Positions 1 to 5,700 of a stretch of 5,700 nucleotides of DNA are shown piece after piece. Origin of the DNA: a virus; the IMG/VR virus record IMGVR_UViG_3300050014_000428, positions 1 to 5,700 of that record. One strand, written 5' to 3'. Under the pieces are notes generated by a model. That model saw only the letters and a list, made by a program, of their open reading frames with translations, searched no databases and was not told where the DNA came from. Within the stretch, counting starts at the first letter, position 1; each line of letters starts with the position of its first letter. A program made the position numbers and the translations under genes.

Positions 1-127
1 CCAGTCCGCCGACTACTGATGTCAAGACTGAGCCGAAAACAACCTTTTGTGCGGAACATCCAACGGATTCGACGTGTAAAGCTGCTGATAGCACATTTCA
101 AGGGTCATGCGGTGCGGGGATTAGTGG
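1..127. repeat. Terminal direct repeat, copy 1 (identical to 5574-5700)
   Basis: Base-by-base comparison: ccagtccgccgactactgatgtcaag...ggtgcggggattagtgg occurs at both ends with no mismatch I could see. Offset is 5,573 nt. Confidence 0.95.
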
Positions 128-503
128 GTCTGTGGCCGCTTGTACAGGGGACGCTGTCCAGTGCGCGCAGGCTGCTGCGGCGTTTAAGATTCAGTGCGAT
201 ATGGAGTCGGAACCAACGGATGCGGCGTACCTGCTCGGGAAGGTGATTTCTAGCGGGGGTGTCGATTCTGTCCCTAATCCGCTGTCTGACGACAAGACAA
301 CGAAAATTGATTTGCTTTCGATTGTCAGCACGGTGGGCGGGGTGCGTTTGCTCTCTTCGACGTGTATTGCGGCTCCGTCATTCACCATTCAAGGCAAGTC
401 TTATACCTTGCCAGTGGATCAGTTCTGTTCATTCGCCCAGATTGTGGGGTATCTCATGGTTGCGGCATCTGCTGTAATCGCCGTTCGTATGGTAGCGTCA
501 TAA
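1..503 (+). CDS. pIII-like minor coat / adsorption protein, C-terminal part (continuation of 4601-5700 across the circular junction)
   Basis: Same frame as ORF-track entry 132-503, but open back to position 1 (first full codon at 3). The region contains Cys pairs (TFCAEHPTDSTC, GSCGAG, AACTGDAVQCAQ, KIQCD). It ends ...FCSFAQIVGYLMVAASAVIAVRMVAS, a hydrophobic C-terminal membrane anchor like Ff pIII. Stop TAA 501-503. Confidence 0.8.
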   Translation, partial: SPPTTDVKTEPKTTFCAEHPTDSTCKAADSTFQGSCGAGISGSVAACTGDAVQCAQAAAAFKIQCDMESEPTDAAYLLGKVISSGGVDSVPNPLSDDKTTKIDLLSIVSTVGGVRLLSSTCIAAPSFTIQGKSYTLPVDQFCSFAQIVGYLMVAASAVIAVRMVAS

Positions 504-512
504 GGAAATATT

Positions 513-815
513 ATGCCAGCATTTCTGATACCGGCGATTGCCGGGGCCTTGTTGTCAGTTGCCGCGTCTTTGGTCGGGCGCATTATTGTGGCCTTGGGAA
601 TGGGGCTTGTGGCCTACAGTGGCATCAATACCGCATTGTCATATTTCCAGACTACATTTACGAATGCGATGGGCGGGGCCGGGGCTACGCTGGCGGGTAT
701 GTGCGGCGTTCTTCAGTTGGACACATGCTTGGCTATTTTCACGGCGGCGGCTCTGGCCAAGTTGGCGATTGCTGGTGCATCATCGGGCACCATTAAGAGG
801 CTGGCAATCAAGTAA
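513..815 (+). CDS. pVI-like small integral membrane protein (minor virion / assembly protein, comparable to the DUF2523-type proteins of other inoviruses)
   Basis: ATG 513 has AAGGA (502-506) 6 nt upstream and starts 9 nt after the pIII-like stop. The 100-aa product is very hydrophobic and Gly/Ala-rich with several TM-length stretches (AFLIPAIAGALLSVAASLVGRIIVALGMGLVAY; LDTCLAIFTAAALAKLAIAG). Its position between the pIII-like and pI genes matches Ff gVI. Confidence 0.7.
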   Translation: MPAFLIPAIAGALLSVAASLVGRIIVALGMGLVAYSGINTALSYFQTTFTNAMGGAGATLAGMCGVLQLDTCLAIFTAAALAKLAIAGASSGTIKRLAIK

Positions 816-1045
816 TGGCAAGGGTTTAGGACGTCGGGATAAGAGAAAAATGCAATAGCCATAGAAATATATGACAACTGTATAATCAGAATACGTATAT
901 GCCATAAATAAATATGACAAAAGAGTATGCAGGTTATCCGTGTGTCATAAAATAACATGCATTAGTAATAAATTGGCCATGCGGTTGTCATAAAAGAGAT
1001 ATGACAATATGGCATTGGTATATGTTTATGTCTTGAGGGCTTGCT
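816..1045. promoter_or_regulatory. AT-rich intergenic island carrying an array of TATGACA(A) repeats; putative operator/iteron and promoter region for the pI gene
   Basis: By hand count, 841-1020 is about 31% G+C, against about 60% in 541-600. ATATGACAA occurs at 869-877, 912-920 and 999-1007. Inverted cores are TGTCATA at 943-949 and TTGTCATA at 985-992. A ~20-nt direct repeat, gccataNaaNtaNatatgacaa, occurs at 858-877 and 901-920 (17/20 identical). A perfect TATAAT lies at 881-886. No credible ORF is present. Confidence 0.6.
985..1007. repeat. Perfect 8-bp inverted repeat TTGTCATA-n7-TATGACAA (candidate operator about 40-60 nt upstream of the pI start)
   Basis: Positions 985-992 pair base-for-base with 1000-1007, with spacer aaagaga. 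The left arm TTGTCA also resembles a -35 hexamer. Confidence 0.6.
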
Positions 1046-2092
1046 ATGATTACGCTAACGACTGGTCTCCCCGGTTCGGGGAAAACACTATTCACGATTG
1101 ATTCTGTGAAGCAATTGGCTGACAAAGAGAATAGGCCAGTGTTTTACTCGGGTATCAAGGATTTGGCATTACCATGGCATGAGATAGACGCTGAGAAGTG
1201 GATGGATTGCAGCGAGGGCGCGATTATCGTGATTGACGAATGCCAGCGGTTATTCAGGCCACGGGGTAACGGGTCGCTGGTTCCGGCCTATGTCTCGGAG
1301 TTGGAAACCCATCGCCACAAGGGGTTCGATATCTTCCTTGTGACTCAGCACCCCATGCTGATGGATGCTAATGTGAGAAGGCTAACCGAACGTCATAACC
1401 ATGTGGCGCGGCGGTTTGGGATGCAGCGTGCAACAGTACTCCAGTTCGAGTCGTGTAAAGAGCAACCTCTTTCTAAGCAGGAAGGGGCACAAAGGCTCGA
1501 ATGGAAGTACCCCAAGGCAGTTTTCGAGTATTACAAGTCGGCGGAAGTCCATACGGTCAAGCGGCGCATTCCGATGACGCTGTGGGTGCTGCTGTCCTTG
1601 CCTTTGCTGGTCGGCGGGATTATCTGGTATTTCGTGTCGTCACATTATCAAGATGGAAAGGTGGTCATAACCAAGTCACCCATTCCACCTGGACAAACAG
1701 TGGATATTTCGGGTAAGCAAGCGGCAGGGGGGAAGGATTCGGCTCAACACGTTCGTACCCCGGTGGAATATCTTGCGGCCTACACCCCGAGGGTAGCGGG
1801 GCTTGCCTACACTGCGTCGGTGTATGACGAGGTGACAAAGCCTGTGCGCGCTCCGGTGCCGGCGGGTACAGTGGTGGCGCGGGGCAAGTGCAAAGCCTAC
1901 ACCGATCAAGGCACCCCCCTTGCTATGGATCAAGCCTTGTGTATGCAGTTTGCCGCGAACGGGTTTTATCGAGAGTTCGACAATAAACCCGTTGGCAAGG
2001 CTATAGAAACGCGCAAGGATGCTCCTAACGTGGATAAGCCTGTGCCCTACACCCAAACAGTGCCCAATTCGGTGGAAGCGGCTGTGCTGTAG
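1046..2092 (+). CDS. Zot / pI-family filamentous-phage assembly ATPase
   Basis: ATG 1046 has GAGGG (1035-1039) 6 nt upstream. N-terminal Walker A GLPGSGKT (1064-1087), Walker-B-like IIVIDECQ, and the block THRHKGFDIFLVTQHP typical of the Zot/pI family. A single TM helix MTLWVLLSLPLLVGGIIWYFV (aa 177-197) is followed by a ~150-aa presumably periplasmic tail. Confidence 0.92.
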   Translation: MITLTTGLPGSGKTLFTIDSVKQLADKENRPVFYSGIKDLALPWHEIDAEKWMDCSEGAIIVIDECQRLFRPRGNGSLVPAYVSELETHRHKGFDIFLVTQHPMLMDANVRRLTERHNHVARRFGMQRATVLQFESCKEQPLSKQEGAQRLEWKYPKAVFEYYKSAEVHTVKRRIPMTLWVLLSLPLLVGGIIWYFVSSHYQDGKVVITKSPIPPGQTVDISGKQAAGGKDSAQHVRTPVEYLAAYTPRVAGLAYTASVYDEVTKPVRAPVPAGTVVARGKCKAYTDQGTPLAMDQALCMQFAANGFYREFDNKPVGKAIETRKDAPNVDKPVPYTQTVPNSVEAAVL

Positions 2093-2417
2093 GTTCCGCG
2101 CCCGCTGGCGCGGCAAGAGGCTTCTCCGCATTCGGGTAGGGGTCGGTCTGTCGGTATTCCCCCTTGCGGAGTTCCAAGGCTTACGGGCCGGAGGCCCAAG
2201 CCGAACGCGCGGCTATTTAACCCCCCCCCTCTATAGACGCCTTTCCGCTTTTGCTCTGGCGGTCTGCGCGCTTTTGCCACCTATCCGGTAGTCAGCCAAG
2301 GCGCTAAGTGCTGAGGGCCGGGACGCGCGAAGCGCGGCACGGGCCACGGGGCTTGTCTCTTTTACAACAAGTCGCATGCGAGCAACGGAAACGCAGACTG
2401 CCTAGGGTTTAAAAGGG

Positions 2418-2446
2418 TTGTTTTACACTTGACAAAAGTGTAAATT
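2418..2446 (+). promoter_or_regulatory. Candidate sigma70-type promoter for rep (-35 TTGTTT 2418-2423, 17-nt spacer, -10 TAAATT 2441-2446), overlapped by the inverted repeat
   Basis: Hexamer matches are 4/6 and 4/6 with ideal 17-nt spacing. A perfect TTGACA (2429-2434) also sits in the loop of the inverted repeat but has no usable -10 at 16-18 nt. Sequence inspection only. Confidence 0.3.
2422..2444. repeat. Perfect 9-bp inverted repeat TTTACACTT-gacaa-AAGTGTAAA (candidate operator or origin hairpin)
   Basis: All nine positions of 2422-2430 pair with 2436-2444. It lies about 95 nt upstream of the rep ATG and shares TGACAAAAG with repeat copy 915-923 in the AT island. Confidence 0.65.
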
Positions 2447-2536
2447 CCTTTTGCGCAAGAAAAGGCCCGCTTGGCGGCGGGCCCTTGGTGCAAACAAACG
2501 GTGCTGGTGACTAGCCAGCGAACAAACGGTGAAAAG

Positions 2537-3664
2537 ATGATAACCTCAAATGCAACCAAGTTGCAAGACTCGCACATAGCGCCTTTCTACGTGAATCGCG
2601 GGCGAGTCAATCAGGCCCGGTATGCTGCGGCGGAATTCGAAGCGGCGCTCAAGGCCAAACCCCTACCTGATAAGTGCGTGGTTCTGGATTCCACCGTGCA
2701 GCGCGTGTTCCGTATGCGCAAGGGTATTCTGACCGCCAGCCGGCTGATAAACGCACGGCTCAAGACCTATATCGATCCAAAGGGCAAGCGGCGCAAGTGG
2801 GTGCCGGTCATGGTTACGCTGACCTATGCCGATAGTTGCGAGTGGGCACCGGATCACATTTCAAAATATATCCATACGGTTTCGGAGTGGGGGCGGCGCC
2901 GGGGCTACAAATTGCCTTATGTGTGGGTGATGGAACTGACGAAAAAAGGCCGTGCGCATTACCATGTCATATTCTGGATACCAGTGCATTTGTTCATTCC
3001 CAAGGCTGACGTTCAAGGTTGGTGGGTGCATGGGTCAAGTAACACGGTTCGGGCGCGCAACCCGTACGGGTATCTGTCGAAGTATGCCAGCAAGGCACTT
3101 GTGCATGATGACGAGGGCAAGCGGGTAGAGTTTCCCAGGGGTGCGCGTATTCACGGCATTGGCGGCGTCACGGCTGACGAAGCGGCAATTATTGCGTGGT
3201 GGAAGTTGCCCAAGGATTTGCGCCGGGGGGACGAGGGTTCGTGCAAATGGCGGCGACACAAGGGTGGCGGGTGGGTGTGCATTGAGGGGGACGCGCGCGG
3301 CGAAATATACGTGTGTAACTGGGGGCTGTCCGCGATCAACGTCAAGGCGAAGCAAGTGCGGCTCGTTGAAAAGTCGAGCCGTGAGGACTGGGACGCGGGG
3401 GCTACTTTTGGGCGGGACTGGGCTTCTTTGGTGGCGGCAACGGCTTCGGCGAACTATGCCGCCGGTCAGGCAGCGGGTGCGGCTGCTGTGGCGTCAATAC
3501 AAACATATCGGCGGTCCTGGATTTGGCAAGGCGGGGGGCCGGGGTTCGTACATCCGACTGATGTGCCCATGAGTGAAGGATTGTTTCCAGGAGATCAGCA
3601 AGGCTTAGACCGTTTCGTGCAGCTTGTGTTTTCAACACCAGATGCATCTCAGGGGCAACCTTAA
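2537..3664 (+). CDS. Rolling-circle replication initiator (HUH endonuclease superfamily, two-tyrosine type; gII-equivalent)
   Basis: RCR motif I VMVTLTY (about 2807-2827); HUH motif AHYHVIFW (HYHVIF = 2957-2974); motif III YGYLSKYASK (3065-3094) with two Tyr spaced Y-x-x-x-Y, closely resembling the phiX174 gpA active site YVAKYVNK. I prefer ATG 2537 (GGTGA 2528-2532 upstream) over the ORF-track TTG 2471, which sits in a hairpin loop. The last ~87 aa (from about 3402) are low-complexity and overlap a minus-strand ORF. Confidence 0.9.
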   Translation: MITSNATKLQDSHIAPFYVNRGRVNQARYAAAEFEAALKAKPLPDKCVVLDSTVQRVFRMRKGILTASRLINARLKTYIDPKGKRRKWVPVMVTLTYADSCEWAPDHISKYIHTVSEWGRRRGYKLPYVWVMELTKKGRAHYHVIFWIPVHLFIPKADVQGWWVHGSSNTVRARNPYGYLSKYASKALVHDDEGKRVEFPRGARIHGIGGVTADEAAIIAWWKLPKDLRRGDEGSCKWRRHKGGGWVCIEGDARGEIYVCNWGLSAINVKAKQVRLVEKSSREDWDAGATFGRDWASLVAATASANYAAGQAAGAAAVASIQTYRRSWIWQGGGPGFVHPTDVPMSEGLFPGDQQGLDRFVQLVFSTPDASQGQP

Positions 3665-3695
3665 CGGTTTTCCAGAGGTTCATTTTATTAGACAT
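3402..3695 (-). CDS. Putative ribbon-helix-helix (Arc/Mnt/CopG-like) transcriptional regulator, antisense to the 3' end of rep
   Basis: ATG at 3695 (minus) has AAGGA 8 nt upstream (complement of 3704-3708). The N-terminus NLWKTVKVAPEMHLVLKTQAARNGLSLADLLETILHSW fits the RHH pattern: a beta-strand with alternating hydrophobics, then P-E..LK..A..NG.S....LL..I, comparable with Mnt FNFRMPMEVREKLKFRAEANGRSMNSELLQIV. The C-terminal ~45 aa are Pro-rich and look like read-through forced by the overlapping rep frame. Confidence 0.5.
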   Translation of the reverse strand: MSNKMNLWKTVKVAPEMHLVLKTQAARNGLSLADLLETILHSWAHQSDVRTPAPRLAKSRTADMFVLTPQQPHPLPDRRHSSPKPLPPPKKPSPAQK

Positions 3696-3790
3696 GCAGA
3701 AATTCCTTGACGTGGAAAAGTTTAAAGGTGTAAGGTTCGTGCCGTCACGAATCGTTCCACAAATAGCTTAATACACCGGAAGGTAAAAAA
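3696..3790. promoter_or_regulatory. Divergent control region between the RHH ORF (-) and the SSB/structural operon (+), with palindrome TTCGTGccgtCACGAA (3736-3751)
   Basis: Plus-strand candidate promoter: TTGACG 3707-3712, 18-nt spacer, TAAGGT 3731-3736. Minus-strand candidate: -35 GTGACG (complement of 3743-3748), 16-nt spacer, -10 TTTAAA (3721-3726). The perfect 6+6-bp palindrome with a 4-nt spacer starts at the last base of the plus -10 and covers the minus -35. Confidence 0.35.
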
Positions 3791-4087
3791 ATGCAAGCGA
3801 CCATGATAGGCGTCACGCGTATGTCGGGAATTGGCAAGGAAAGCAAGGCGAAGTATGATATGACAAGGGCACTTATTCTCAACCCGATCGCGCCGTTTGA
3901 AAAAGAAAACTTCAAGCGGGAGGGGTTCGGGTTTGAAGTGATTGAGGTCGAAATGTCGGCGGACTGTTTGCCGTTCTTCGCGGTGCAAAAATTTCCGCTT
4001 GCGGGCAATTTCGACGTGGTGAATGAGGTGCGGGGCGGCAAGCTGGCACCCGTGATTGTCGGCATGGTCGCGTCGAAGGCTGCCTAA
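3791..4087 (+). CDS. gV-like ssDNA-binding protein (assigned mainly by position, size and loose similarity)
   Basis: ATG 3791 has GGAAGG (3778-3783) 7 nt upstream. The 98-aa product sits directly downstream of rep and upstream of the coat module. VTRMSGIGKESKAKYDMTRALIL loosely parallels Ff gVp TTRSGVSRQGKPYSLNEQLCYV. Its stop overlaps the next start (TAATG, 4085-4089). Confidence 0.6.
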   Translation: MQATMIGVTRMSGIGKESKAKYDMTRALILNPIAPFEKENFKREGFGFEVIEVEMSADCLPFFAVQKFPLAGNFDVVNEVRGGKLAPVIVGMVASKAA

Positions 4088-4326
4088 TGATTTGCGCGAC
4101 GTACTCCGCTACGGGCGAAGTGCTGGTCGTGCTTCCTGCGCCCCCGGATATTTCAGGGTGTGCGCTACTTATTCCGACTGCGGCAGACCAAGCGAACTAC
4201 CCGTTTTCTTTGTCTGCTGCGGACGGTTCAGCGGTGGCATTTGCCATCGTTCTTGTGTGGGGCGCGGGTTTTGCGGGGCGAGCCTGTATTCGTGCGCTTT
4301 TTTTAGGCGGTGTTTCTAGTGAATAA
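4087..4326 (+). CDS. Hypothetical small membrane protein occupying the gVII/gIX position (possible minor virion or assembly protein)
   Basis: ATG 4087 is coupled to the SSB stop (TAATG), and its end overlaps the coat-gene GTG by 8 nt, so the genes are tightly packed like an operon. It has a hydrophobic segment SAVAFAIVLVWGAGFAG followed by R. The competing frame 4056-4319 is Arg/Cys-rich and looks non-coding. Confidence 0.5.
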   Translation: MICATYSATGEVLVVLPAPPDISGCALLIPTAADQANYPFSLSAADGSAVAFAIVLVWGAGFAGRACIRALFLGGVSSE

Positions 4327-4489
4327 AATCTATAGTGTTCTGTTGTTCGTTCTGCCCATTTCGGCTTTTGCGGCTGTTGATGTTACCGCCATTACGTCGG
4401 TTTTGGCTGACGTCGCGCTGGTTTCGGCTGCTGTCTTTGGCGTTTATGTCGCCATCAAGGCGTCGAAGTTCATCCGCCACGCTCTCTAA
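4319..4489 (+). CDS. Major coat protein (pVIII-like) precursor, 56 aa; not in the supplied ORF track
   Basis: GTG 4319 has AGGCGG (4305-4310) 8 nt upstream. Translation: MNKIYSVLLFVLPISAFA / AVDVTAITSVLADVALVSAAVFGVYVAIKASKFIRHAL. This gives a signal peptide with an A-F-A cleavage motif, then a 38-aa mature peptide with an acidic N-terminus (2 Asp), a hydrophobic core and a basic C-terminus (K,K,R,H), which is the textbook inovirus coat layout. Stop TAA 4487-4489, followed by a terminator as after Ff gVIII. Confidence 0.8.
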   Translation: MNKIYSVLLFVLPISAFAAVDVTAITSVLADVALVSAAVFGVYVAIKASKFIRHAL

Positions 4490-4516
4490 TCGAGAACGCA
4501 TCGGATGAAGTTCGAC

Positions 4517-4544
4517 AGGCGGGGCTACGTCCTCGCCTTTTTTT
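4517..4544 (+). terminator. Rho-independent terminator downstream of the coat gene
   Basis: An 8-bp stem AGGCGGGG / CCTCGCCT (one G-U pair), a 6-nt loop ctacgt, then a run of seven T (4538-4544). It starts 28 nt after the coat stop. Confidence 0.75.
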
Positions 4545-4562
4545 ATTCCCGAGGGTATGACA

Positions 4563-4622
4563 ATGGGCTTATGGGTCATCGTGGCGGTGTTGGGGGCGAC
4601 ATGGTTGATTTTCAGCGCGTAG
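4563..4622 (+). CDS. Possible hydrophobic micro-ORF (19 aa from ATG 4563, 21 aa from ATG 4557), a pVII/pIX-like candidate
   Basis: GAGGG (4551-4555) lies 7 nt upstream of ATG 4563. Translation: (MT)MGLWVIVAVLGATWLIFSA, stop TAG 4620-4622. It overlaps the preferred pIII start (4601) in another frame. It is very short, so chance cannot be excluded. Confidence 0.3.
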   Translation: MGLWVIVAVLGATWLIFSA

Positions 4623-5700
4623 GGCGGCTTTTTCTTTGCTTTCTCTTTGGCGTGCTTCTCGTTGGTGTGCCGATGCTTGCGCGTGCTGAAACTATTGCTG
4701 CGACCTATAACGGTACGGCGGTCGCGGTTGCTGGTGGTTCGCCAATTACCTATGGGGGTATTGGTTTGCAGGGAGCGTTTTCGTCTGCGGATGCGGCGTG
4801 CAATTCGCTTGTTGCGGGTTCTCACGGTGATTCGGTTCCGGGCCCTCCTGCTAGTGGTTATATGTCGGTAAGTTTTCTATGCAAAAGTGCTGCGGGGGCG
4901 ACTGTGGTGGGTGCGCAAGCTAATTTTAGTTGTATACCGCCATCCGTTTCTACGGCTAGCTATTGCAAAATTCCGGCGGGTTATTCCTGTCCGGGTGGTC
5001 AGAACTGGACGCTCGCGGGTTCTAGTTGTTCTCGACCGGATTGTGTTGCGCCGCAAGTGCGTGATTCTGCGACTGGTGTTTGTAATGCGCCTGCGTGTCC
5101 TGTTGCGGGTACTACGGTCGGCGCGGTAGGTCAGATTTCTAGCGGTTTGGGTCAGATAGGCGGTGCGGGCACGATTTGCATTTCGTCTTGTGTGGTTTCG
5201 CCGTCGGGTGGTTGTGAAAGTGTTCATAACACTGCGGGGTGGAAATACTTTTGTCATGGTCCTTTTGTTGTTACTGGCACGAGTTGCACGGGTGCGGATG
5301 TTGCTGTGCCTCCGACTGATCCGGCTTATAAATGCGCGCAACAGGGTATGCAATCGGGTACGGTTAATGGCGCTGTGGTGTGTGTTCCTGCGGATACGAC
5401 CCAACAAACTAAGCCGGAAACTGACGTTAAAACACCGGGCACCGGGCCGGCAGCGACTGATAATTCAACGGCAACCACGGTCTGTACGGGGGATGGTTCT
5501 TGTACGACGACGACGATAACTACGACAACGCAAGGTGGATCGGGGCCGGGGGGGACGGGGCCGGGTTCGACTACCAGTCCGCCGACTACTGATGTCAAGA
5601 CTGAGCCGAAAACAACCTTTTGTGCGGAACATCCAACGGATTCGACGTGTAAAGCTGCTGATAGCACATTTCAAGGGTCATGCGGTGCGGGGATTAGTGG
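4601..5700 (+). CDS. pIII-like minor coat / adsorption protein, N-terminal part (runs off the window end and continues at 1-503; ~491 aa in total)
   Basis: The frame (position mod 3 = 2) has no stop from 4490 to the window end. It is absent from the ORF track because it never terminates in the window. ATG 4601 gives MVDFQRVGRLFLCFLFGVLLVGVPMLARA / ETIAATYNG, a Sec-type signal peptide with a basic n-region, hydrophobic core and A-R-A site. The mature part is Cys-rich and carries a Thr/Gly/Pro linker TTTTITTTTQGGSGPGGTGPGSTTSPPTT (5504-5590). 973 nt plus 503 nt equals 492 codons, so the frame is continuous over the junction. Alternative starts are ATG 4571, GTG 4652 and ATG 4673. Confidence 0.8.
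   Translation, partial: MVDFQRVGRLFLCFLFGVLLVGVPMLARAETIAATYNGTAVAVAGGSPITYGGIGLQGAFSSADAACNSLVAGSHGDSVPGPPASGYMSVSFLCKSAAGATVVGAQANFSCIPPSVSTASYCKIPAGYSCPGGQNWTLAGSSCSRPDCVAPQVRDSATGVCNAPACPVAGTTVGAVGQISSGLGQIGGAGTICISSCVVSPSGGCESVHNTAGWKYFCHGPFVVTGTSCTGADVAVPPTDPAYKCAQQGMQSGTVNGAVVCVPADTTQQTKPETDVKTPGTGPAATDNSTATTVCTGDGSCTTTTITTTTQGGSGPGGTGPGSTTSPPTTDVKTEPKTTFCAEHPTDSTCKAADSTFQGSCGAGIS
5574..5700. repeat. Terminal direct repeat, copy 2 (identical to 1-127)
   Basis: Same 127-nt string as the window start. It lies inside the pIII-like coding frame, so it is a circular-permutation or assembly overlap (or a tandem unit), not an att site. Confidence 0.95.

Follow-up and report, generated by a model that had tools for sequence, protein, structure and literature searches.

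A phased repeat array inserted between the pVI-like and pI genes

We examined 5,700 nt of viral DNA, positions 1 to 5,700 of IMG/VR record IMGVR_UViG_3300050014_000428 (the window), and focused on an AT-rich island at positions 816-1045 that separates the pVI-like gene from the Zot/pI gene of a small secretin-less inovirus. The island is non-coding and is built of tandem 43-nt units, each of which opens with a palindrome, and its two ends are predicted to pair in the mRNA across the start of pI. Our tentative reading, to which we give somewhat less than an even chance on these sequence features, is that the island is a phased binding array for a dimeric protein combined with a re-created translational coupling of pI to pVI.

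A first-pass annotation, made from the letters of the window alone, had noted that non-coding DNA interrupts the neighboring gVI and gI genes. This was correct, although it had gone unrecognized that the DNA is an insertion into a gene pair that normally overlaps. In 6/6 of the closest Zot relatives (57-71% identity; L002-L005, L342 and L343), the pVI stop and the pI start overlap and share ATGA (...ATCAAATGATTACG... / ...AAATGATTACG...), whereas the window has ~231 nt placed between ...ATCAAG and ATGATTACG. We surveyed the pVI-pI gap in 64 further relatives and found the genes overlapping in 38, separated by 2-17 nt in 17 and by 41-243 nt in 9. Because the two genes overlap in 6/6 of the closest and 38/64 of the wider relatives, we conclude that the island is an insertion. 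Junction comparison, the gap survey and composition together delimit it as a lineage-specific, non-coding insertion of about 231-234 nt at positions 812-1045. The insertion gives pVI a new TAA, which keeps the protein at 100 aa, and gives pI a GAGGG-N6-ATG site, and an ATG stands at both of its boundaries. Conservation in related inovirus genomes had been proposed as a check on the repeats, and the island was missing from all relatives compared. The description of an AT-rich island in a GC-rich genome also held, but the G+C content of roughly 31% given for it fits the repeat core (858-1029; 30.8%) rather than the whole island (34.8%), against 54% for the genome. The island is present in one other contig only, L001, which matches the window at 100% identity over 4,085 nt and possibly comes from the same sample. 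Since L001 carries an identical island, an assembly artefact is ruled out.

Insertions at this junction are not restricted to the window. In 7/7 relatives with a gap of at least 142 nt, the gap is filled, unlike the island, by an open reading frame (ORF) of 49-71 aa, and these ORFs are mostly chained to both neighbors via stop/start overlaps. The ORFs found in the gaps are as follows:

L094: ribbon-helix-helix (RHH)-like
L132: coat-like membrane protein
L345-L347: zinc-ribbon-like
L338/L339: 56-aa ORF

Junction inserts are also present in L140, L099 and L097, in the gap between DUF2523 and Zot. These sequence comparisons lead us to conclude that accessory DNA has been inserted repeatedly at the pVI/pI junction in this inovirus group. 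Because the long gaps of relatives hold chained small ORFs, coupling of pI appears to be normally kept at this hotspot. A long non-coding, AT-rich and repetitive insert was found only in this phage among the relatives compared. As a separate observation, the genes at this junction in L141 are 88 nt apart (3913-4000), and in this non-coding gap an intrinsic-terminator-like hairpin (GGGTGATGCCAAGGTATCACCC, then T8) lies immediately before the Zot ribosome-binding site (RBS).

Each 43-nt unit opens with a palindrome

The repeats that had been listed for the island were all confirmed. The 9-mer ATATGACAA is exact at 869, 912 and 999; two inverted cores, TGTCATA, lie at 943-949 and 986-992; a perfect palindrome, TTGTCATA-N7-TATGACAA, spans 985-1007; and the direct repeat 858-877/901-920 is identical at 17 of 20 positions. 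What had been missed was a 43-nt register with one palindrome per unit, along with the enrichment of the motif outside the island and the island's status as an insertion. A register print-out and autocorrelation placed four units in tandem. The autocorrelation at lag 43 was 0.51, the sole lag above 0.42, and a 21/22-nt periodicity was absent. Each unit opens with one 20-21-bp palindrome of the form TGYCATA-N6/7-TATGACA, which is degenerate in site 3. The parts of the array are:

858-1029, plus strand: four tandem 43-nt units, starting at 858, 901, 944 and 987
815-857 and from 1030: degenerate flanking units, seen in the register print-out
857-877: site 1, aGCCATA-GAAATA-TATGACAA, left half-site weak
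900-920: site 2, TGCCATA-AATAAA-TATGACAA
943-962: site 3, TGTCATA-AAATAA-CATGCAT, right half-site degenerate
985-1007: site 4, the perfect palindrome TTGTCATA-AAAGAGA-TATGACAA
1008-1014: extra weak half-site TATGGCA, directly after site 4

The weaker half-sites are thus GCCATA at 858, TGCCATA at 900 and TATGGCA at 1008. The heptads are 6-7 nt apart within sites and ~23 nt apart between sites, and the 43-nt phasing of the palindromes corresponds to four helical turns. Outside the palindrome, the units are 42% identical, compared with 29% expected by chance, and therefore we conclude that they descend from one another by tandem duplication. Within the units, the half-sites are the best-preserved columns (permutation p = 0.017 for the best 20-column block).

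We compared motif counts with shuffled, composition-matched sequence, a check that the first-pass annotation had proposed, and found the repeats to be beyond chance. TATGACA occurs nine times in the window compared with 0.42 expected, and 0/200 shuffles of the window reached nine. In dinucleotide shuffles of the island only, the p-value was 0.013 for five copies of the 7-mer, 0.003 for four copies of the 8-mer and 0.019 for three copies of the 9-mer. The enrichment extends beyond the island, where the 8-mer occurs three times compared with 0.10 expected (P = 1.5e-4) and the 7-mer four times compared with 0.44 expected (P about 1e-3 to 1e-4 for the outside copies). The isolated copies are:

636-644, minus strand: exact ATATGACAA, inside the pVI-like gene
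2964-2972, minus strand: ATATGACAT, 7-mer core only, inside rep
3858-3866, plus strand: exact ATATGACAA, inside the single-stranded DNA (ssDNA)-binding-protein gene, partly imposed by the conserved residues YDM
4555-4563, plus strand: GTATGACAA, between the coat-gene terminator and the pIII gene

In 560 kb of sequence from related inoviruses, TATGACA was present at 0.40 per genome-equivalent, which is the chance density. Over-representation of the motif outside the island is therefore restricted to this genome among those compared, and as a pattern of sequence it favors a function for the motif.

The ends of the insert are predicted to pair over the pI start

The two ends of the insert form a predicted 18-bp helix in the mRNA, with arms at these positions:

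815-834, plus strand: 5' arm, whose first base is also the last of the pVI stop codon (813-815)
1028-1047, plus strand: 3' arm, which takes in the pI Shine-Dalgarno sequence GAGGG (1035-1039) together with the AU of the start codon

The pair probability was ~0.9 in sequence contexts of 249-788 nt. The duplex has a predicted free energy of -20.1 kcal/mol compared with -9.6 +/- 2.7 kcal/mol for shuffles, and 4/2000 shuffles were as good. The pI RBS window (-14 to +2) is predicted to be 76% paired, entirely with the 25 nt that follow the pVI stop. At the DNA level, the two arms match at only 13/20 positions, and all 18 helix positions pair once G.U is allowed. All five non-Watson-Crick positions are G.U on the plus strand, and this restriction of mismatches to G.U suggests selection on the RNA rather than a transposase end. 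The modeled helix favors a function for the island.

A proposed mechanism and the points against it

The mechanism that we propose starts with AT-rich, non-coding DNA of foreign composition, which would have been inserted at the pVI/pI junction of one inovirus lineage and would have grown through tandem duplication of a 43-nt unit. In the double-stranded replicative form, the four 20-21-bp palindromes would then recur every four turns on roughly the same face of the helix and could act as a cooperative array for a dimeric, sequence-specific DNA-binding protein from the host or a co-resident element. The bound protein could gate transcription from pIII/pVI into pI, an assembly ATPase that is toxic in excess. 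Alternatively, it could tether the replicative form. In the mRNA, the first 20 nt past the pVI stop would pair with the last 20 nt of the island and hide the pI Shine-Dalgarno sequence and AUG. Ribosomes that end translation at the pVI stop would open this helix, giving the same pVI-to-pI coupling that the ATGA overlap gives in relatives. If the binding field is real, a minimal ssDNA phage has gained a non-coding cassette, for regulation or for tethering, whose reader is a protein encoded elsewhere, and if the coupling is real, an RNA helix repairs a break in translational coupling that the insertion itself caused. The earlier idea of a cooperative protein-binding field upstream of pI is retained in its generic form, with palindromes that are phased at four turns and form the best-kept columns of the units; the partners named for it did not hold up (see below).

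Several results weigh against a binding array with re-created coupling. The sites and the helix are known from one sequence, since L001 is identical and carries no evolutionary information, and no protein binder was found for the array. The within-island p-values are moderate (0.003-0.02), and tandem duplication alone yields repeated motifs. Two of the copies outside the island lie on partly constrained codons, and the array is dyad-symmetric simply because its palindromes are periodic. With respect to RNA, the whole-island fold is marginally better than that of shuffles (z = -1.8), the 5' arm reaches only rank 57 of 1849 in a comparison with all genome windows, and other non-coding gaps in relatives have no RBS-sequestering helix. 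In addition, we found no sigma-70 promoter (-35/-10 at 16-18 nt) scoring at least 9/12 on either strand of the island. A relaxed scan gave the following:

881-886, plus strand: perfect -10-like hexamer TATAAT, directly downstream of site 1, with no matching -35 (8/12 in total)

The main rival is that the island is a tolerated minisatellite without binding function, a possibility that we take seriously but consider doubtful. On this explanation, AT-rich DNA was captured or expanded by slippage at a permissive junction, the repeats reflect common descent only, and of the whole insert only the stop codon and Shine-Dalgarno sequence that it supplies, with perhaps the terminal helix, matter to the phage. 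Homology of the units along their whole length fits tandem duplication, the junction tolerates unrelated insertions, and the island is present in one genome only, with no homologue in the collections searched. Likewise, the island contains no promoter, no terminator and no Rfam family. Against a passenger, the half-sites have been preserved better than other parts of the units (p = 0.017), and the same 8- and 9-mers are over-represented outside the island in this genome only. As a general consideration, a 5.6-kb ssDNA genome also rarely carries 4% of dead weight.

Phage proteins as candidate readers of the array

We considered which proteins the phage could supply. The last 127 nt of the window (5574-5700) repeat its first 127 nt (1-127) exactly, and because of this terminal redundancy we conclude that the genome is circular and complete, with a closed length of 5,573 nt. 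Its gene inventory is complete with the following entries:

513-815: pVI-like DUF2523 gene, 100 aa, stop codon 813-815
1046-2092: Zot/pI gene, AUG 1046-1048
2537-3664: Rep (PF23343)
3695-3402, minus strand: omega-like RHH ORF, antisense in the 3' end of rep
3791-4087: RstB-like ssDNA-binding protein (ssb)
4087-4326: 79-aa protein
4310-4489: Coat B
4601 across the circle join to 503: pIII-like gene

None of the annotated phages is close to this genome at the DNA level. Because the named Zot relatives come from Propionivibrio and Candidatus Accumulibacter, the host probably belongs to the Rhodocyclales. Separately, a strong intrinsic terminator (4517-4538 plus a T-run) follows the coat gene and is itself followed by a GAGGG-N7-ATG that opens a 19-codon hydrophobic ORF (MGLWVIVAVLGATWLIFSA, 4563-4622), which overlaps the pIII start in another frame (window 4517-4619).

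The putative RHH protein encoded at 3695-3402 proved to be a real, conserved gene that is omega-like and intact in five phage lineages. In the four other lineages with this Rep, the ORF is 50-69% identical over its first 50 residues, a conservation equal to that of the Rep core, and in L340 the RHH domain lies mostly outside rep. A search of a word-indexed protein collection with the ORF returned nothing, whereas an exhaustive HMMER search found seven called RHH homologues. Since homologues are intact and were found by HMMER, we conclude that the absence from the word-indexed collection is a gene-calling artefact and no evidence against the gene. Indeed, gene callers left the ORF uncalled on every contig examined (L001, L338-L341 and L345-L347), and it is nearly absent from protein databases. 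A profile of the ORF from five phages gave omega of pSM19035 (2bnw) as its best solved relative (E = 0.0075; beta-strand KTVKV compared with KTVRV), and Pfam Omega_Repress gave a sub-threshold match in 4/4 RHH members. A single-sequence AlphaFold (AF2) model of the protein has two RHH helices after an N-terminal strand region.

With a conserved omega-like gene in the phage, the RHH protein itself could bind the TATGACA heptads, and the island could be its operator field or an omega-style centromere for pI. We consider this unlikely. Omega recognizes the 7-bp heptad WATCACW whether it is direct or inverted (PMC9499535), and TATGACA matches TATCACA at 6/7 positions; the central base differs. GTCATAAAA is also loosely like the GTGTAAAA repeats at the ssb promoter. 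Omega, however, requires its heptads to be contiguous without gaps (PMC9499535), and those of the island are 6-7 nt apart. Phages of the four other lineages (L338-L341 and L345-L347) carry the RHH gene with an almost identical beta-strand, yet they have 0-2 copies of TATGACA, the chance level, and no island. The natural operators of the RHH protein appear to lie elsewhere: AAA(A/G)GTGTAA repeats are kept at the rep and ssb promoters in all five phages with this RHH/Rep module, as GTGTAAAA-type repeats that adjoin one another within the spacer of the ssb promoter (window 3712-3735; 5/5 phages) and as an invariant AAAAGTGTAAATT at the rep promoter (5/5 phages). We searched the island for the AAA(A/G)GTGTAA, GTGTAAAA-type, AAAAGTGTAAATT and repeat-hairpin-repeat sequences and found none. 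The phage also encodes no ParA partner.

Because RHH and Rep have conserved candidate sites elsewhere, and relatives with the same proteins lack TATGACA above chance, neither is a likely reader of the island, and the first-pass proposal that RHH or Rep controls pI through it is unsupported. The protein that reads the array is probably not encoded by the phage, judging from this comparison. With the conserved phage proteins being unlikely readers, the binder would come from the host or a co-resident element.

The candidate sites are of interest in their own right. In the ssb promoter (window 3707-3736; TTGACG, an 18-nt spacer and TAAGGT), the spacer consists of three contiguous 8-nt repeats, GTGGAAAA GTTTAAAG GTGTAAGG, that are kept in relatives and are the likely operator of the RHH repressor. 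At window 2422-2446, ~95 nt upstream of rep, a perfect palindrome, TTTACACTT-N5-AAGTGTAAA, overlaps the invariant AAAAGTGTAAATT and is probably the rep promoter -10 plus a candidate operator. It is followed by a conserved GC hairpin (2461-2486) and then by a repeat-hairpin-repeat (2490-2531) before rep, an arrangement present in all five phages in a lineage-specific form. In the window, its repeats are GCAAACAAACGGTG at 2490 and GCGAACAAACGGTG at 2518, and its stem-loop is at 2503-2519. The repeats at 2490-2531 co-vary with the Rep lineage and their stems are kept by compensatory changes, making the segment a candidate plus-strand origin or Rep-binding site.

We also compared the array by eye with consensus sequences of known regulators. 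PhoB boxes were rejected, since the half-site is similar and yet there are no 11-bp direct repeats. LexA, CRP/FNR, TyrR, NifA upstream activating sequence, sigma-54 and extracytoplasmic function (ECF)-type promoter sites were rejected because their spacing fits at most 1-2 units. No integration host factor (IHF) consensus was found in the island.

Searches for the island in other genomes

Searches with blastn of the island against phages and plasmids and against about 90 related inovirus loci returned no match, and Rfam has no family for it. Exact 18-mers from both ends of the island had 0 matches in viral contigs. We then scanned for the pair ATATGACAA-N34-ATATGACAA. In viral contigs, the scan gave seven matches, all attributable to chance. 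In a collection of one genome per species (185,579 genomes), it gave 54 matches, of which 40 were bare pairs, and nothing was island-like; the few dense arrays in that collection (Treponemataceae, Campylobacter and Saccharibacteria) have no neighboring gene in common. In metagenomes, a scan with N33-35 gave at least 120 matches, and among the matches listed there were only unrelated satellites without blastn similarity to the island, a weak negative because the window's own contig is absent among the matches listed. A palindrome scan of viral contigs gave 71 matches, none of them island-like, and the literature held the core sequence only in irrelevant contexts.

Two sets of loci from these scans are described here for themselves. 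In L048 (IMGVR_UViG_3300045988_158547), an unrelated AT-rich viral contig, positions 6513-7980 include a 369-aa gene resembling a plasmid-type replication initiator. Five 21-nt iterons (TGTCATAGTTCATTATGTTTT) containing TGTCATA lie ahead of this gene, and its promoter has an inverted pair of the same core. This locus looks like an origin of phage-plasmid style and offers an analogy to the island only. In two Treponemataceae metagenome-assembled genomes, L214 (2630-3010) and L206 (4340-4560), AT-rich chromosomal intergenic regions hold 10-13 copies of ATATGACAA in both orientations, with no recognized neighboring gene in common.

The search results bear on a further explanation, which we regard as distinctly improbable: that the island is a miniature inverted-repeat transposable element (MITE), or an element of the enterobacterial repetitive intergenic consensus (ERIC) or Correia type, which landed in the operon with its terminal inverted repeats and acts, if at all, via an RNA hairpin by processing or RBS masking. 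A length of ~230 nt, an AT-rich foreign composition and an intra-operonic location would all suit such an element. Its ends pair, the whole has dyad symmetry, and the ATG at both boundaries could be a 3-bp target duplication or microhomology. As DNA, though, the terminal repeat matches at only 13/20 positions, the helix mismatches are all G.U on the plus strand, and a tandem-array interior is untypical of a MITE body. There was no second copy in viral contigs, phages, plasmids or ~90 related phages, and nothing island-like in the genome-collection scan or, among the matches listed, in the metagenome scan.

Handle, origin and attachment-site explanations

The array could instead serve as a centromere-like handle or a protein sponge on the multicopy replicative form, an idea we hold to be very unlikely. 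Four palindromes in a register of 43 bp, like that of sopC, would recruit or titrate a DNA-binding protein of the host, a plasmid or a prophage. If true, the phage would either exploit a partition system that is not its own or deplete the repressor or initiator of a competitor, and the additional half-sites elsewhere in the genome would increase the load.

The first-pass annotation had also raised a second origin. More broadly, the island could be a replication element, either a minus- or plus-strand origin or an iteron array for Rep or for a plasmid-type initiator supplied in trans. Repeated sites in AT-rich DNA would suit such an element, and TGTCATA-containing iterons adjoin the plasmid-type initiator gene of the unrelated contig L048. 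As ssDNA, however, the island is not significantly structured (z = -1.16; 23/200 shuffles fold as well), whereas the main intergenic region (2093-2536) is structured (z = -2.8), with hairpins kept by compensatory change and the repeat-hairpin-repeat before rep. Because of this difference, a role of the island as an origin or in packaging is unlikely, and the second origin is unsupported. Further, the palindromes are 43 nt apart, unlike direct 17-22-nt iterons at ~22-bp spacing; nine motif copies spread over both strands rule out a nick site; the phage has no initiator gene besides its HUH Rep; and no DnaA box (TTATNCACA within 1 mismatch) is present in 812-1045. We consider a replication element highly improbable.

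Many integrase-less inoviruses integrate via XerCD at dif-like sites, and CATA-N6-TATG in the palindromes faintly recalls inner Xer arms, but the island is scarcely credible as a dif-like attP because the best match to the 28-nt dif consensus in the genome, 16/28, equals the shuffle mean (16.3) and lies outside the island.

With a single sequence and no binder found for the array, the island is for now a well-described orphan rather than a discovery. Two points affect the annotation of such genomes: the insertion hotspot at the junction and the conserved omega-like repressor gene, antisense to the 3' end of rep, that gene callers systematically miss.

Comparison with known systems

Several known systems share features with the island. 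ERIC/Correia-type elements form intra-operonic hairpins, carry defined terminal repeats and occur in multiple copies per genome. The island is similar in being a short AT-rich imperfect palindrome that is co-transcribed between genes and whose ends pair in RNA, and it differs in having no second copy in the collections searched. Like accessory genes of the "moron" type, it is DNA of foreign composition between conserved genes, at a site holding unrelated inserts in relatives; unlike the small ORFs with stop/start overlaps found there, it is non-coding and repetitive.

In MS2, the replicase RBS is masked by a segment of the coat gene, and its opening is ribosome-dependent. The predicted pairing at the island is alike in that it joins a downstream RBS to a remote segment farther upstream, one that ribosomes on the upstream gene would encounter. 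In contrast, the upstream arm at the island lies directly after the stop, outside the coding region, and its effect is a prediction.

The omega system of pSM19035 also uses 7-bp units in direct and inverted orientation, read there by an RHH dimer, and the phage encodes an omega-like RHH protein. Its heptads, however, are contiguous WATCACW, whereas those of the island are split by 6-7 nt and differ at the central base, and the RHH protein of the phage has better conserved candidate sites outside the island.

The sopC locus of the F plasmid consists of tandem 43-bp direct repeats, each with one inverted-repeat site for a dimeric protein (PMC3177203). Units of the island are also 43 bp, with one inverted-repeat box each and four-turn phasing. 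The two differ in that sopC comprises 12 units with a 16-bp box (TGGGACCNNGGTCCCA) and lies next to sopA/sopB, whereas the island has 4 good units with an unrelated 7-N6/7-7 site. Consistent with this difference, the island holds no match to TGGGACCNNGGTCCCA within 3 mismatches, and the gene inventory of the phage contains no ParA or ParB gene. By analogy of layout, we conclude that the architecture of the island is closest to the 43-bp centromere repeats of sopC and, more loosely, resembles omega heptad arrays.

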